Shown one piece after another: positions 2,779 to 35,553 of a stretch of 64,000 nucleotides of DNA. How positions within the stretch are numbered: the stretch's first letter is position 1; each line of letters starts with the position of its first letter. The notes beneath the pieces were generated by a model. It saw only the letters and a program-made list of their open reading frames with translations, was not told the DNA's origin and did not search any database. This stretch comes from Escherichia phage PECP20. The position numbers were made by a program, and so were the translations under genes. Location: sequence record OQ873415.1. One strand, 5' to 3'.

Positions 2779-3048
2779 CTATCGGAGCAAACAATAAGCC
2801 TGAAACACTTTTTCCATTAAACGTTTGAACTCATGGATATCGATATAAAGCTCAGTAAGACCGGCATTATAAAGAAAATCTAAAAAGTTCTCATGTGTTT
2901 CGTTATAGTCGCCTTCGTTTAATTGAGATACATGAGTTTCCCAAAAACCGACACCTTTAACAAATGGAAAATACGTAACTTTCATAAAGTTGTCGACGTA
3001 AAATTCGCCCAGCTTTTCTTCAGTTATACTGATTCGAGTTAATTTCAT
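2779..3048 (-). CDS. Hypothetical protein (89 aa)
   Basis: ORF track; ATGA overlap with neighbour. Confidence 0.5.
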   Translation of the reverse strand: MKLTRISITEEKLGEFYVDNFMKVTYFPFVKGVGFWETHVSQLNEGDYNETHENFLDFLYNAGLTELYIDIHEFKRLMEKVFQAYCLLR

Positions 3049-3272
3049 TCTAGTTCCTTTGCTGCAAATAAGGCAGCATCCAATGAATCAAATTGGTCAA
3101 CGAAATCAATATTCAACGCATCGTCAACCGTAGCATATAGCCACCATTGTTTGAATTCGTATTCTAGAATAAATCCAGGACCTTCGATCTGAGGAAGACC
3201 TAGACTATTTGTACCAACTTCGTAACCAGCTAGACGCAGGTCATTAATCAAAGTTTCTGTTAATACGCTCAT
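3045..3272 (-). CDS. Hypothetical protein (75 aa)
   Basis: ORF track. Confidence 0.5.
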   Translation of the reverse strand: MSVLTETLINDLRLAGYEVGTNSLGLPQIEGPGFILEYEFKQWWLYATVDDALNIDFVDQFDSLDAALFAAKELE

Positions 3273-3601
3273 TTTACCGCCTTAACAATTTTAAGGTCAA
3301 CGAATTTTTTCTTACGTTGATTTTTCATACGACGGATAGTCTTTTCAGAGATTTCATGTTTCTGATAAGCTTTAGATTCAACACCAAATGCAGCAACGTC
3401 AAATTCAGAAAGAATATATTGTACTAGAATTTCACGAATAGAATTACGTCCAATTTTCTGGTCGTGTTTTTGCATGATTTCATAAAGACGGAATTCCCAC
3501 GCGTCAAGAACTTGAGGAGTAACAATATTGCCGGATTCCAGAAGAGCAACAACTTTATCGAAAGCGAAAGAATTAACTACGTTTTTGATTTTAGTAGACA
3601 T
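3269..3601 (-). CDS. Hypothetical protein (~110 aa)
   Basis: ORF track; internal ATG preceded by GAGGAAAATAAT. Confidence 0.5.
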   Translation of the reverse strand: MSTKIKNVVNSFAFDKVVALLESGNIVTPQVLDAWEFRLYEIMQKHDQKIGRNSIREILVQYILSEFDVAAFGVESKAYQKHEISEKTIRRMKNQRKKKFVDLKIVKAVK

Positions 3602-6611: not shown

Positions 6612-8425
6612 TGGTGTTTAACCCTATGCATGATTTCTTTATTTTTACCGAGATTAAATCCGCGTTCGTTCGGATTTCCCAAATAACCGCATGTCCTTCT
6701 TATAGTGTTCATCTTTTTAGGATCAGTTTCTCCACAAACTGAACAAACAAATCCGTTTTCAGTAGGAGTCATTTCATGAGTACTTCCACACGTAAAACAT
6801 TTATCTACTGGCATATTAACACCAAAATAATCTAAATGTTGTGCAGCATAATCCCACACGGCCTCAAGACCTTTTAGGTTATTTTTCATATCAGGAAGTT
6901 CAACATAAGAAATGTGACCACCTGTCGCAATGAAATGATATGGCGCTTCACGAGAAATCTTTTCAAACGGAGTAATATTTTCTTCTACTGAAACGTGGAA
7001 ACTATTAGTGTACCAGCCTTTATCGGTAACATCTTTTACGCTTCCATATTTTTCTGTATCAAGTTTACAGAAACGATAACACAAGTTTTCAGCAGGAGTA
7101 GAATATAAACTAAAAGCAAATCCAGTTCTTTCGGTCCACTGTTTAAGATGAGCATTCATTTTAGTTAAAATTTCTTGCCCAATATCACGACCGACAAGAA
7201 TATTCAATTCGTGAATACCAATGTATCCCAAAGACACTGAACTTCTACCGTTTTTAAATAACTCAATTATATCGTCGTCAGGTTTAAGACGAACCCCAAA
7301 TGCACCTTCTTGGTAAAGAATAGGAGCAACAGTCGCTTTAACTCCTTTTAAGGAACTAATTCTACACATCAAGGCTTCAAAGCACAGATCCATTCGTTCA
7401 TTAAATAACTCAACAAATTTCTGTTCATTGAACTGTGTTCCAATATAAGAATCTAACGCGATGCGAGGAAGATTCAGTGTTACAACACCGAGATTATTAC
7501 GTCCATCAAGAATTTCATTACCAGTCGAATCTTTCCATACACTCAAGAAACTACGGCAACCCATTGGAGAAACTGGAACTGAAGAACCAGTAATAGCTTT
7601 ATTATTCTTAACCGAAATAATGTCAGGATACATTCTTTTGCTTGCACATTCTAACGCAAGTTGTTTAATATCATAGTTCGGATCATCTTTATAAAGATTA
7701 ACACCTTCTTCAACAAACATAACAAGTTTAGGAAAAATAGGAGTTATTCCATCACGACCAAGACCTTTAATCCGATTTTTCAGAATTGCTTTCTGAATCA
7801 TTCGTTCGGTCCAATCAGTTCCAGTACCAAATGTAATTGTTACAAAAGGCGTTTGCCCGTTTGAACTAAAAAGAGTATTTACCTCATACTCATAAGCTTG
7901 AAATGCGTCATATACATCTTTTTCTGTTTTAGATTGAGCATAATTCAGAATGTCTGGTATTTGCCATTTTTCTGCATCTTCAACATGTTTAGCGTATGTA
8001 CGTTTAACATAAGGAGAAAGAACTTTATCGACATTCGCAAATGTAGTTCCGCCGTACTGATGTGAAGCAACTTGTGCAGTAATTTGTGCCATAATTGCAG
8101 TAGCAACACCAATCGATTTAGGCGTTTCAATTTGAGCATTGCCCAATTTAAATCCGTTCTCAAGCATCCCCTTTAAATCGACTAAACAGCAATTGGTAAA
8201 CGGAAGAGCAGGAGAATAATCAATATCATGCATGTGGATAATTCCACTTTCATGCGCATTCATAATAAAAGACGGGACCATATTTTTGGCAATGTGCTTA
8301 GACACAATACCAGCCATAAGGTCCCGTTGAGTTGGAAAAACACGAGAATCTTTATTAGCATTCTCGTTCAAAAGATCTTTATTAGTTTTATAAATTAATC
8401 CTTCAATTTCTTTTTCAATTTTCAT
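6608..8425 (-). CDS. nrdD: Anaerobic ribonucleoside-triphosphate reductase NrdD (glycyl radical enzyme), uninterrupted
   Basis: 605 aa; C-terminal glycyl-radical motif RRTCGYLG and Zn-ribbon cysteines; same length as T4 NrdD; one continuous ORF, no intron. Confidence 0.95.
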   Translation of the reverse strand: MKIEKEIEGLIYKTNKDLLNENANKDSRVFPTQRDLMAGIVSKHIAKNMVPSFIMNAHESGIIHMHDIDYSPALPFTNCCLVDLKGMLENGFKLGNAQIETPKSIGVATAIMAQITAQVASHQYGGTTFANVDKVLSPYVKRTYAKHVEDAEKWQIPDILNYAQSKTEKDVYDAFQAYEYEVNTLFSSNGQTPFVTITFGTGTDWTERMIQKAILKNRIKGLGRDGITPIFPKLVMFVEEGVNLYKDDPNYDIKQLALECASKRMYPDIISVKNNKAITGSSVPVSPMGCRSFLSVWKDSTGNEILDGRNNLGVVTLNLPRIALDSYIGTQFNEQKFVELFNERMDLCFEALMCRISSLKGVKATVAPILYQEGAFGVRLKPDDDIIELFKNGRSSVSLGYIGIHELNILVGRDIGQEILTKMNAHLKQWTERTGFAFSLYSTPAENLCYRFCKLDTEKYGSVKDVTDKGWYTNSFHVSVEENITPFEKISREAPYHFIATGGHISYVELPDMKNNLKGLEAVWDYAAQHLDYFGVNMPVDKCFTCGSTHEMTPTENGFVCSVCGETDPKKMNTIRRTCGYLGNPNERGFNLGKNKEIMHRVKHQ

Positions 8426-23377: not shown

Positions 23378-23591
23378 AAGGAATTTCCTCATCGGTGGCA
23401 AGGTCATATTCGACCAATTGGATAGGCTCATTAATACCATATCCACGTACAGTGATATCAGTTGCCGGATAGTTTCCAGTAATATCACCCATTCTAAATG
23501 CTTCAATGAATGATTGCTCGCCTGAGCAACTAAACCAGGCGGCAAAACATTTTAAAACATCTTCAGACCCTTCTATAATCAATTTAGCCAT
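23367..23591 (-). CDS. Hypothetical protein (74 aa)
   Basis: ORF track. Confidence 0.45.
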   Translation of the reverse strand: MAKLIIEGSEDVLKCFAAWFSCSGEQSFIEAFRMGDITGNYPATDITVRGYGINEPIQLVEYDLATDEEIPYVD

Positions 23592-23953
23592 TATAGACTC
23601 TCAGTAAAGGTACGAGCGATAACGTCACGCTGCTGTTCCGGAGTCAGAGAGTTAAAGCGAACTGCATAACCGGATACACGGATGGTCAGCTGCGGATATT
23701 TTTCCGGATGCTTAACTGCATCTTCCAGAGTTTCACGACGCAGAACATTAACGTTCAGGTGTTGACCACCTTCAATTTTAACTTTAGGTTGATGTTCAAT
23801 TTCAATTTCGCGGGCATGTAAACCGTAGAAAATTTCCGGGTCTACAATAGCGTCTTCTTTAAAAGTCTTAGAGACAATAATCCGGGCTTGAGTACCGTCT
23901 TCAAAATAAATAGTGCCTTTGTGTGTGCCTTCAAGAATTTGATATGCTTTCAT
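23591..23953 (-). CDS. Autonomous glycyl radical cofactor (GrcA/YfiD-like)
   Basis: C-terminal half ...[60 protein letters not shown] carries the glycyl-radical signature RVSGY and matches E. coli GrcA as I remember it. Confidence 0.8.
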
Positions 23954-23959
23954 ATAACC

Positions 23960-24268
23960 TCAATTAGAAAATAAATTTATCCAAGTTTTTTCTTTAATCA
24001 AAAATGGGTCGGAATTAAACGCCATTAAACTTTGAGTGATTAATCCCTTAAATGGCCCATCAATAAATTCCATTTTGAAATGCGGAATACTAGTCATCAA
24101 CCGTGCATTAGGAGCAGTACAAAGAACCTGCTGCCCTGCGAACGGACCTTTAGTCAAACGGTATCGTTTAGGTTTAAAATGGTAAATCTCGTAATTTTCT
24201 ACAAGAGCCCTTTTATTGCATACTGGGCTGTTATAACAATACTCAAAAACTTCAATAGTGGTCATCAT
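23960..24268 (-). CDS. Hypothetical protein (102 aa)
   Basis: ORF track. Confidence 0.45.
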   Translation of the reverse strand: MMTTIEVFEYCYNSPVCNKRALVENYEIYHFKPKRYRLTKGPFAGQQVLCTAPNARLMTSIPHFKMEFIDGPFKGLITQSLMAFNSDPFLIKEKTWINLFSN

Positions 24269-24804
24269 TGCATTCCAATCACAAAAAATTGAGGACGAGC
24301 ATTACCGCCGATGCAATATTTGCTTTTGCAACAGTGTTGGACTGTTTTAATATGTACATTGTAAATCTTATCCATATCAGGAGCTTTAATAGGCTCGTCA
24401 ATTATATACAGAATACGAGAAAGCGTTAATCCACGGAATTTAGAACCTTCATTGCCAATAAAACTACGAACAGAATCAGTAAATAAACGGAATCGAATAT
24501 CGTCGCTAGAATAACGAGAAAATTCTTTTTTAATGTTGCCAGCAGAAATTTTAGAATAAGCTGAAGTATTAGAAAGAACAATAACTGTTCCACCATCATA
24601 CAGCCAATTAACAGCAAAATTAGTTACTGCGGTCGATTTACCTGATTGTCGGCCGCCGTCTAAACGAAGTGTACAGTACTGCTTGAGTACGTCTTCAAAC
24701 GGTGGGATATAACCGTTCTTACAAATTTCTTCTACTCTAGCATCAGAATGGTGTGTAAAAGCATTCATCAGGGATAGATAAGGTCCAGTTAAAAATGTTC
24801 TCAT
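24265..24804 (-). CDS. Hypothetical P-loop protein (Walker A GGRQSGKST), 179 aa
   Basis: Walker A motif in the translation. Confidence 0.5.
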   Translation of the reverse strand: MRTFLTGPYLSLMNAFTHHSDARVEEICKNGYIPPFEDVLKQYCTLRLDGGRQSGKSTAVTNFAVNWLYDGGTVIVLSNTSAYSKISAGNIKKEFSRYSSDDIRFRLFTDSVRSFIGNEGSKFRGLTLSRILYIIDEPIKAPDMDKIYNVHIKTVQHCCKSKYCIGGNARPQFFVIGMQ

Positions 24805-24976
24805 TTAGTTTCTCTTAAGGTTGGGGCCATTCCATGGCACATGTTAGGTCCTTCGACTCGCTATGTAAACCCATTACCGCATTGCGCTCGACCTTATTAC
24901 AGGTTGGAAAAGGTACATCACTCAGAGGACTCGACGTTCATGAGGAGAGGTTGCGTTTCCCTTTATTAGGCAAGAA

Positions 24977-25306
24977 TTATACTCTAGGCTTTTGAGCTTG
25001 TTTGGTATTGGATTCCCATGTGGCTTTGGTAATTTTGTTAGCGGCATAACCAAAGGCATTAGATAGAACACCTTTAGAGTTGAATACATCCAATCCAATA
25101 AGTACACCGGCTGTGTTAAATTTAGGAGCAAAGTACGCATTAGTTTTAGAAAGAGCTTTTTTCAATTCAGGGTCTTGAACCAAGTCATCAAAAACGCCTT
25201 TACTATTTACTTTATATGTTACTTTGGGATTTTTACTTTCTTCGATAGCAGCTTTCTGTTCCGCAGATAATGTAACTTCAGTGATAAACTCTTGATATGT
25301 TTTCAT
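24977..25306 (-). CDS. Internal-protein-like head protein with N-terminal capsid-targeting sequence (MKTYQEFITE...)
   Basis: N-terminus matches the T4 internal-protein targeting consensus MKTYQEFIAE; AAGGAAAAA ribosome-binding site. Confidence 0.55.
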   Translation of the reverse strand: MKTYQEFITEVTLSAEQKAAIEESKNPKVTYKVNSKGVFDDLVQDPELKKALSKTNAYFAPKFNTAGVLIGLDVFNSKGVLSNAFGYAANKITKATWESNTKQAQKPRV

Positions 25307-25313
25307 TTTTTCC

Positions 25314-25727
25314 TTAGTAAATTGATTTACCATAGTATTTGTACCAAGTCGGACGTTGAGCAATTTTTTCATCTAAGCGTGCTTGACTTATCGCAATGGA
25401 CACTTCGGACGGGACATAATTATTACGAAATTCGGCAGGAATGTCGGAAATATCCTGGACTGTCGTGTCCTTGATTTTGAAACCACGTTTCAAACATTCA
25501 GCGATTAGCTCGATTTGTCGTAAACGTAAAAATTCAAGTTTGTCGTAAAAGAATGTTACGTGACCTGTGCCTAAGATAAATGTTGGAGAGATTTTAAAAT
25601 CCTTTACACGTTTACCGTTTTGAACATGTTTACGGACTGCACCAAATACGCGTGGTAATTCACGATACTCAGCCATAAGATGTTGGTCGGACAGTTCAGA
25701 AACAAGTGTTAAATTGATACGAGTCAT
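25314..25727 (-). CDS. denV: Endonuclease V (pyrimidine-dimer DNA glycosylase) DenV
   Basis: [34 protein letters not shown]... near-identical to T4 DenV; 138 aa. Confidence 0.9.
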
Positions 25728-35396: not shown

Positions 35397-35473
35397 TGGT
35401 CGAGACAGAAGGATTCTAACCTTCAACCTACGGATTAGAAGTCCGTTGCTCCATACAATTGAGCTATGCCTCG
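35397..35473 (-). tRNA. tRNA-Arg (anticodon TCT), CCA encoded
   Basis: Hand fold: acceptor CGAGGCA/TGTCTCG, D-arm GCTC...GAGC, anticodon stem ACGGA/TCCGT with loop CTTCTAA, T-stem GAAGG/CCTTC, discriminator A plus CCA. Confidence 0.75.
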
Positions 35474-35479
35474 AATATA

Positions 35480-35553
35480 TGGCCCAGACCAGATTCGAAC
35501 TGGTAACCTTTCCCTTATGAGGGGACTGCTGCTAACCATTGAGCTACAGGGCC
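35480..35553 (-). tRNA. tRNA with anticodon CAT (Met, or Ile if lysidine-modified)
   Basis: Hand fold: acceptor GGCCCTG/CTGGGCC (one U-U mismatch), anticodon loop CTCATAA, T-arm ACCAG-TTCGAAT-CTGGT; no encoded CCA. Confidence 0.7.

Follow-up and report, generated by a model that had tools for sequence, protein, structure and literature searches.

A conserved phage-specific structured RNA and a probable internal-protein gene side by side in the vs.8-denV interval of Escherichia phage PECP20

Among the internal proteins of phage T4 are IPI*, an inhibitor of GmrSD, and IPIII, which is required on ECOR17 (PMC13326640, PMC9391042). T4 also encodes two small stable RNAs, RNA C and RNA D (species 1 and species 2), which are of transfer RNA (tRNA) size or slightly larger and belong to the tRNA arrays on the tRNA strand; according to a 2010 review, no riboswitch or trans-acting small RNA of this phage had been characterised (PMC3014915). 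T4-type phages further contain promoter-early stem-loop (PeSL) cassettes, intergenic units at the borders of variable regions with the order stop codon, stem-loop, Shine-Dalgarno site and ATG (PMC2839356). A stretch of 64,000 nucleotides (nt) from Escherichia phage PECP20 (OQ873415.1; the window) was analysed at the interval between denV and a vs.8-like gene, where an open reading frame (ORF) that starts like T4 internal-protein genes (the Ip-like ORF) adjoins a 172-nt tract. As a whole, the interval is best explained by two independent features lying side by side, the Ip-like gene and a conserved structured RNA, an account held with moderate confidence.

The tract (24805-24976) has a G+C content of 46.5%, compared with 37.7% for the window. 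A sequence-only reading had described it as a 170-nt non-coding tract preceding the Ip-like gene. A tract of 172 nt exists and stops interrupt all three of its minus-strand frames, but in the direction of transcription it follows the Ip-like ORF and precedes vs.8. Because it is downstream of the one and upstream of the other, it is not the leader of the Ip-like ORF. The same reading found no ORF in the tract, which holds for the minus strand; the plus strand has ORFs of 42 and 53 amino acids (aa) only. The several short palindromes that it mentioned are present and are the helices of a conserved RNA structure, which it had not recognised.

The RNA extends over approximately 24964-24869 of the minus strand (∼95 nt) and consists of a hairpin domain closed by stem P1, followed directly by a 43-nt three-way junction. 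Across homologues it contains an invariant block, ACCUGU(R)A(W)AAGGUC(R)AGC-N5-6-GCGGUAA, with compensatory stems on either side. Variants were collected by pattern scans of IMG/VR and metagenomes, anchored on the invariant bases, and pairing was tabulated at pattern-free positions in 55 distinct variants. All 55 were canonical at the first pair of P2 (A-U 23, U-A 18, U-G 7, C-G 7), at its second and third pairs (five and three pair types, respectively), at the outer pair of P3 (A-U, G-C, C-G) and at the Y-R pair of the mini-helix (C-G 44, U-A 11). Among 52 cores several pair types were found at six positions, and the mini-helix pair was C-G in 42 and U-A in 10, and never C-A or U-G, although the pattern permitted both. 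One nucleotide of the P2 3′ strand was always bulged (G in 51 of the 55 variants, A in 3, C in 1).

A MAFFT alignment of 52 distinct cores gave 95.8% paired cells compared with 77.7% in shuffled alignments, none of 500 shuffles being as high. The covariation score was 0.452 against 0.119 for shuffles (0 of 500) and was at most 0.071 when the partners were slid by 1-3 columns. As a negative control, ∼11 chance pattern matches from metagenomes were used, and these fail the P2, P3 and mini-helix pairings. G-U combinations outnumbered A-C by 14 to 2, and the sense strand of the RNA is therefore the minus strand of the window, the same as that of the genes. All five pairs of P1 were altered on both sides among 23 T4-like sequences (AAAGG/CCUUU, AAAGC/GCUUU, AAAGA/UCUUU, GGGAA/UUCCC and GGGAG/CUCCC). 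The P1 hairpin is always 5′ of the junction, takes many other sequences outside the T4-like phages and in most of 89 distinct upstream sequences is separated from P2 by 0-2 nt. The inner hairpin of the 5′ domain is nearly invariant, and covariation neither supports nor refutes it. Covariation thus shows the fold, its sense strand and its spread among phages. A covariance model of the junction (R1, run with filters off) matched the window once, at 24909-24868, with the next best match at 9.6 bits.

Three points weigh against the strength of this picture. Core positions were often fixed by the search patterns, so that their invariance is partly by construction; the core sequences are related, so that the cell counts overstate the number of independent events; and minimum-free-energy folding of the tract was no better than that of shuffled sequence (z = +1.9 for the minus strand, +0.8 for the plus strand). 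Since these z-scores are not significant, the structure is argued from covariation only; on folding energy by itself the element would have been discarded. A pseudoknot pairing the P3 loop (GUAA) with a downstream UUAC is not claimed, having a single compensatory change, being absent in several groups and overlapping the −35-like GTTTAC. Also rejected was a stem ACAU/AUGU within the 3′ part, which other groups do not support. The ideas that the 5′ hairpin is a k-turn or C/D-box and that there is a resemblance to RNase P J11/12 were considered but not adopted.

That the tract is coding, either as an N-terminal extension of vs.8 or as a small plus-strand ORF, has next to no likelihood. In its favour are the T4 reference NC_000866, in which vs.8 is annotated with 220 aa and a start codon within the 5′ hairpin of the RNA (locus L173 1292-1413, record position ∼64,791-64,912; L numbers denote loci from other phages and contigs), and the two plus-strand ORFs of the window tract. 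The coding readings were rejected because of the minus-strand stops and of variation among homologues, which are set apart by indels of 1 and 17 nt and by hairpin insertions; substitutions in the tract track base-pairing and not codon positions. A common start, MRTFLTG/MKYLT, is found in the vs.8 homologues downstream of the RNA. Because they all begin there, ∼40 codons downstream of the annotated T4 start, the T4 vs.8 start is probably mis-annotated, and this annotation probably hid the element from intergenic-region screens.

The distribution of the RNA was examined by blastn with the tract (200 nt), which matched 997 phage records at 77-100% identity, from eight Tevenvirinae genera and a Vequintavirus. 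Matches include T4, Klebsiella Jiaodaviruses (88-89% identity), Salmonella S16, Edwardsiella PEi26, Citrobacter Merlin, Cronobacter Pet-CM3-4 and Serratia CBH8. The block is conserved just upstream of vs.8 in eight genera, and divergence is far greater in the vs.8 proteins that flank it in the matching phages (E about 1e-33 to 1e-45). Outside the T4-like group the core was found in rV5-like phages, in contigs of ∼46 kilobases (kb) and of 75-93 kb, and in ∼360-kb jumbo-phage contigs, with human-gut and TARA ocean samples among the sources. Two of the non-T4 variants, searched by blastn against cultured phages, matched nothing beyond the shared core.

The core was not found by blastn in 5,426 E. 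coli genomes. A 16-base core pattern gave 117 matches in 185,579 bacterial and archaeal genomes, none of which continued into GCGGTAA, the pattern being narrow enough for divergent copies to escape it. These matches were treated as chance because none continues into GCGGTAA; ∼280 would be expected by chance for such a pattern in those genomes. In these searches the RNA was confined to phages. Rfam 15 gave no relevant match at E ≤ 10 for the window region or at E ≤ 1 for six other loci of the RNA, and ARAGORN found no tRNA or tmRNA in the tract. No RNA annotation was present at the element among the sampled matching records. A literature search found neither the core sequence nor an RNA at the vs.8/denV position; a 2023 catalogue of >10,000 viral RNA candidates (PMC10690425) was not compared. 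By these sequence comparisons the RNA of the tract qualifies as a new, widespread, phage-specific structured RNA family.

Outside the T4-like group the RNA is associated with tRNA genes. A tRNA on the same strand is found within 700 nt in 33 of 52 members and a tRNA on the opposite strand in none of the 52, and all tRNAs in these loci are co-oriented with the RNA. The RNA starts 39-53 nt after a tRNA in L174, L189, L216 and L249 and ends 27 nt before one in L176, where a TTGACA-17-TATAAT promoter is found upstream of it. Intrinsic terminators follow the RNA in L189 and L191. In the rV5-like and ∼46-kb groups it is 200-580 nt upstream of tRNAs. Kanagawavirus-type phages (Edwardsiella PEi26 and relatives) have the RNA twice in tandem, both times complete with P1 and core (L006 1263-1416, L035 9023-9177, L244 365-519); in the second copy P3 (GCCU/AGGC) and the mini-helix (GU/AC) have changed in a compensatory way. 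The gene that follows the RNA differs by phage, being vs.8, an Ip gene, a gene for a small basic protein or tRNAs, which argues against a gene-specific leader.

In the window the tRNAs nearest to the RNA are at 35397-35553, outside any array shared with it. These are the only two tRNA genes of the window (minus strand, Arg-UCU and Met-CAU). Arg and Met are also the tRNA set beside the RNA in the ∼46-kb phage contigs. In the rV5-like locus L045 a group I intron (RF00028, 81 bits) was observed at 3115-3418, beside or within the terminase large-subunit gene and ∼3 kb downstream of the RNA.

The favoured reading, at a confidence just short of even, is that the element is a small stable non-coding RNA cut from polycistronic transcripts, with a junction that docks a partner. 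An autonomous small stable RNA that matures together with tRNAs, in the manner of RNA C and RNA D, is favoured because of the co-orientation with tRNAs, the array-like spacing, the promoter and terminators, the tandem copies and the variety of downstream genes. The RNA would be made within polycistronic early or stable-RNA transcripts and would be cut out by the enzymes that mature the neighbouring tRNAs. The invariant junction would dock a partner that many bacteria have in common, probably a component of the machinery of translation or of tRNAs, or a nuclease attacking it. The putative stable, trans-acting status is argued from genomic context. Against this reading, a distance of 6-10 kb lies between the RNA and the tRNA genes in T4-like phages, and no terminator follows it, so that it could act in cis there. 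This distance also separates it from RNA C and RNA D, which lie beside tRNA genes. All three are phage-encoded, but no resemblance in sequence or structure to RNA C or RNA D was seen, and model R1 run on an 11-kb T4 stretch (L173) found only the vs.8-proximal copy at 1359-1401 and not rnaC/rnaD at 7409-7672.

Action in cis, either as put- or nut-like processive antitermination, protein-independent or factor-dependent, through untranslated tRNA arrays and long early operons or as a ribonuclease (RNase) entry site, is unlikely, though it is the most substantial of the alternatives. It would account for a co-orientation with the surrounding transcription unit that is always observed, for the often promoter-proximal position upstream of tRNAs (in L176 the order is promoter, element, tRNA) and for the position in T4-like phages, inside a long early operon without a following terminator. 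P3 (CCU-GUAAAA-AGG), with its short CCU/AGG stem and purine-rich loop, was also counted for it, as this hairpin may resemble boxB of the lambda nut site. An antitermination signal would not be expected in tandem as in Kanagawaviruses, however, and in L189 the RNA follows the final tRNA and immediately precedes an intrinsic terminator, while in L174, L216 and L249 it is in the middle of the array or on its 3′ side. No boxA-like sequence was noticed by eye, and no boxA search was made.

As in three-way-junction riboswitch aptamers, the junction is compact, with invariant unpaired nucleotides surrounded by covarying variable stems. That it is such an aptamer, sensing a small molecule and controlling downstream expression, is improbable. 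The tandem arrangement in some phages would suit it, as would L189, where GGGGUUU (the P2 3′ strand and the following UUU) could form an antiterminator-like pairing with AAAGCCC, the 5′ arm of the terminator. The downstream genes share no function, however, and are often only tRNAs or nothing at all; no expression platform is conserved, the vs.8 ribosome-binding site (RBS) of the window is not sequestered, and there was no match to an Rfam riboswitch family. The element likewise differs from nut boxB and HK022 put: it has no Rfam family, and neither a regulated gene nor an expression platform accompanies it consistently.

That the element is a new small self-cleaving ribozyme acting on polycistronic transcripts of the phages is slightly more doubtful still. 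Several small ribozyme classes are common in phages, the core is near-invariant in unrelated phages, and the element sits between genes and beside tRNAs that need release from long precursors. Against this, no Rfam 15 ribozyme family was matched even at E ≤ 10, and neither a supported cleavage site nor a characteristic pseudoknot was found.

Beyond the stable, processed RNA favoured here, a stronger reading is possible but rather unlikely, namely that many virulent phages, T4 included, share a new functional RNA class with an activity undescribed for phage RNAs. Candidates within it are a decoy of the tRNA anticodon loop, a protein-independent antitermination RNA serving untranslated operons, and a new ribozyme or aptamer. 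The decoy, for host nucleases or anticodon-loop enzymes, is a candidate because the P3 loop U-GUA/GUG is like the Tyr and His anticodons and the RNA travels with tRNA arrays.

The last ∼45 nt of the tract (24869-24826) differ in character from the RNA core. In L251, a Mosigvirus-like contig, a partial copy of this 3′ part alone (2940-3050), of the T4 type, stands before the Ip-like gene, behind an early-promoter-like GTTTACT-17-TAGTAT, and the full element still precedes vs.8. The hairpin of the copy is the reverse complement of P5 of the window. Because it is copied alone in L251, the 3′ part is separable from the RNA core. P5 occurs in a compensatory form, GGCAU/AUGCC, in two lineages. A CsrA-type role for the GGA loop was considered but not adopted; the loop is inverted in L251. 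From this arrangement, the last ∼45 nt look like a portable vs.8 leader cassette in the PeSL sense, apart from the RNA core, and the partial copy, which travels with another gene as PeSLs do, suggests that leader cassettes are shuffled at this locus.

For the element as a whole, a DNA-level effect without RNA function is very improbable. The tract would then be a linker for recombination, or a promoter/stem-loop cassette of PeSL type, bordering the variable ip locus and kept similar by frequent exchange among phages. The tract does mark the border between the conserved vs.8 and the variable ip genes, a promoter-like TTTACA-17-TAACAT and a stem-loop are present, the L251 copy carries its early-promoter-like site, and PeSL cassettes of such a kind are known in T4-type phages (PMC2839356); the tract shares with them the intergenic order of stop codon, stem-loop, Shine-Dalgarno site and ATG beside a variable region. 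The promoter-like site, however, matches at 9 of 12 positions, the number of such sites is that expected from shuffled sequence, and it is absent in T4. A DNA-level role would also leave unexplained the three helices kept by compensatory changes and the strand-specific bias of G-U over A-C. PeSLs are short, dispersed, multi-copy units of promoter and terminator, whereas the element is a 95-nt multi-helix covarying RNA, present once in the window and conserved, also inside tRNA arrays, among phage groups that vary in genome size and in gene context. The DNA-level reading may apply to the 3′ 45 nt only.

The second feature, the Ip-like ORF, is present on the minus strand with a Shine-Dalgarno site; as the sequence-only reading had it, it starts MKTYQEFITE. 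Nine of these ten residues are identical to the leader MKTYQEFIAE of T4 IPII and IPIII; the leader of T4 IPI differs from this type and is longer. Only two ORFs in the window have starts of the MKTYQEFITE type, the Ip-like ORF and an ipII-like gene, one on each side of denV. The T4 prohead protease cleaves by an (L/I)-x-E rule, and the protein has I-T-E at residues 8-10 and a second such motif, I-E-E, at residues 21-23. The predicted mature form after cleavage at ITE|V is 99 aa with an isoelectric point of 9.6. The term internal-protein-like was a reasonable one, given the capsid-targeting leader with its I-x-E motif, the small basic product and the neighbouring ip genes in the denV/e neighbourhood, all features shared with T4 IPII and IPIII. 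Judged by its leader, the protein most likely enters the prohead core, would be trimmed by the prohead protease after ITE and would be injected along with the phage DNA.

The best PHROG for the protein was phrog_3966 (‘unknown function’). PHROGs of internal head proteins matched it weakly (E = 8e-4 to 5e-3), through the leader alone. Several results speak against an internal protein. In PHROG and Pfam searches the mature part showed no detectable homology to IPI, IPII or IPIII, Pfam gave no match for the whole protein even at E ≤ 10, and a single-sequence AlphaFold model was unusable, with a predicted local distance difference test score (pLDDT) of 52. The mature parts of known internal proteins are mutually unrelated too, and homology of this part is therefore a weak criterion. 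No virion proteome study naming the ORF was found in the literature. A weak resemblance of residues 11-90 to the repeats that make up MBG_2 (YGX-type) domains in large adhesins of bacteria (summed E 1.7e-9 over 12 repeats, 28-33% identity per repeat) is a lead only.

Homologues of the Ip-like ORF, for which a search had been proposed, were found by tblastn in 90 phage records. In 76 of these, identity was 95-99%; they are phages of E. coli, Shigella or Salmonella, those examined are Mosigviruses, and they include RB69, where the gene is RB69ORF123c (‘hypothetical protein’). A further 13 records, of the WG01/KIT01 group, were at ∼35% identity. An exhaustive profile search of 1.84 billion representatives gave only five proteins, and a word-indexed protein search gave two clusters. 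The gene is thus already catalogued as RB69ORF123c and is not a new observation. It had been described as an extra, differently placed and divergent copy. The gene is indeed on the vs.8 side of denV, unlike ipII and ipIII, which T4 annotation confirms to lie between denV and e, and its mature part is without detectable similarity to the three T4 proteins; it is, however, ordinary in its genus, occurring in ∼76 Mosigvirus records.

The vs.8-denV interval of Mosigviruses holds one to three ip-type genes, and between the Ip-like ORF and denV relatives have up to two further small genes. In APCEc01 one such gene starts MKTYKEFIAE and another MYQEFIIE. The Jiaodavirus and Gelderlandvirus records examined have Ip or Ip4-type genes at the same spot, with denV not annotated there. 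From the variable small genes together with the leader, the Ip-like ORF is probably an internal protein in a variable ip locus, and one typical of its genus. It is plausible that internal proteins, with this one included as a candidate, are injected counter-defence factors.

Every gene of this region of the window is on the minus strand, in the order e, ipII-like gene, denV, Ip-like ORF, 172-nt tract, vs.8-like gene, vs.7 and vs.6 (from the ORF table and annotated relatives). PECP20 belongs to Mosigvirus (T4-like, RB69 group): the 1.9 kb around the Ip-like ORF has 99.4% identity to Escherichia phage LF82-41 (Mosigvirus), and ∼100 other RB69-group phages match most of it. The ORF at 23591-23953 corresponds to a gene that relatives have annotated as autonomous glycyl radical cofactor (GrcA-like, vs.6 position). 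The vs.8-like P-loop protein has a weak match (E = 4.5e-5) to a terminase-large-subunit PHROG in the ATPase region. Copies of the RNA in the rV5-like phage (L045) and in L028 are also within a few kb of terminase genes, which may be coincidence. Coordinates are collected in the table.

Table. Positions of the RNA, the neighbouring genes and their signals in the window
Feature	Position	Strand	Remarks
RNA 5′ domain	24909..24964	-	stem P1, 24964-24960 AAAGG with 24913-24909 CCUUU, around an imperfect hairpin
Inner imperfect hairpin of 5′ domain	24950-24916	-	CCUCUCCUCAUGAAC...GUCCUCUGAGUGAUG
Three-way-junction core	24868..24909	-	covariation; model R1 62.6 bits
P2 closing stem	24908-24905 with 24873 and 24871-24869	-	G24872 bulged
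P3 hairpin	24904-24891	-	ACCU-GUAAUA-AGGU; loop consensus GUNANA
Junction CGA	24890-24888	-	invariant form C-N-A
Mini-helix (2 base pairs)	24887-24879	-	GC-GCAAU-GC
Invariant junction GGUAA	24878-24874	-	
3′ part of tract, leader/cassette of vs.8	24826..24869	-	contains GUUUACA
Promoter-like site	24869-24864 and 24846-24841	-	−35-like TTTACA, −10-like TAACAT, spacer 17
Small hairpin	24857-24848	-	GUC-GAAG-GAC
Hairpin P5	24838-24826	-	GCCAU-GGA-AUGGC
vs.8 RBS and start codon	24802..24816	-	RBS AAGAG 24816-24812; start codon 24804-24802
vs.8-like P-loop protein	24265..24804	-	179 aa; phrog_1488; downstream of the RNA in most T4-like phages
Ip-like ORF	24977..25306	-	109 aa; RB69ORF123c family, phrog_3966; ATG 25306-25304, TAA 24979-24977
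Capsid-targeting sequence	25277..25306	-	MKTYQEFITE with I-T-E prohead-protease-type motif
Shine-Dalgarno site of Ip-like ORF	25312..25316	-	AAGGA, 6 nt before the ATG, directly after the denV stop codon
denV (endonuclease V)	25314..25727	-	upstream neighbour of Ip-like ORF

The RNA is present in ∼1000 sequenced T4-like genomes and lies under a coding annotation in the T4 reference, though T4 and RB69 are among the best-studied viruses. Its recognition would correct gene models, the start of T4 vs.8 in particular, and gives the variable internal-protein locus a conserved RNA as its boundary, with the Ip-like gene a reasonable candidate for an injected anti-defence protein. It raises the question of the partner and role of the RNA and of its link to the phage tRNA arrays that overcome host defences. 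If the element does belong to a new functional RNA class, it would be the first characterised non-tRNA functional RNA of T4 and would represent an RNA-based layer in phage counter-defence or gene control.

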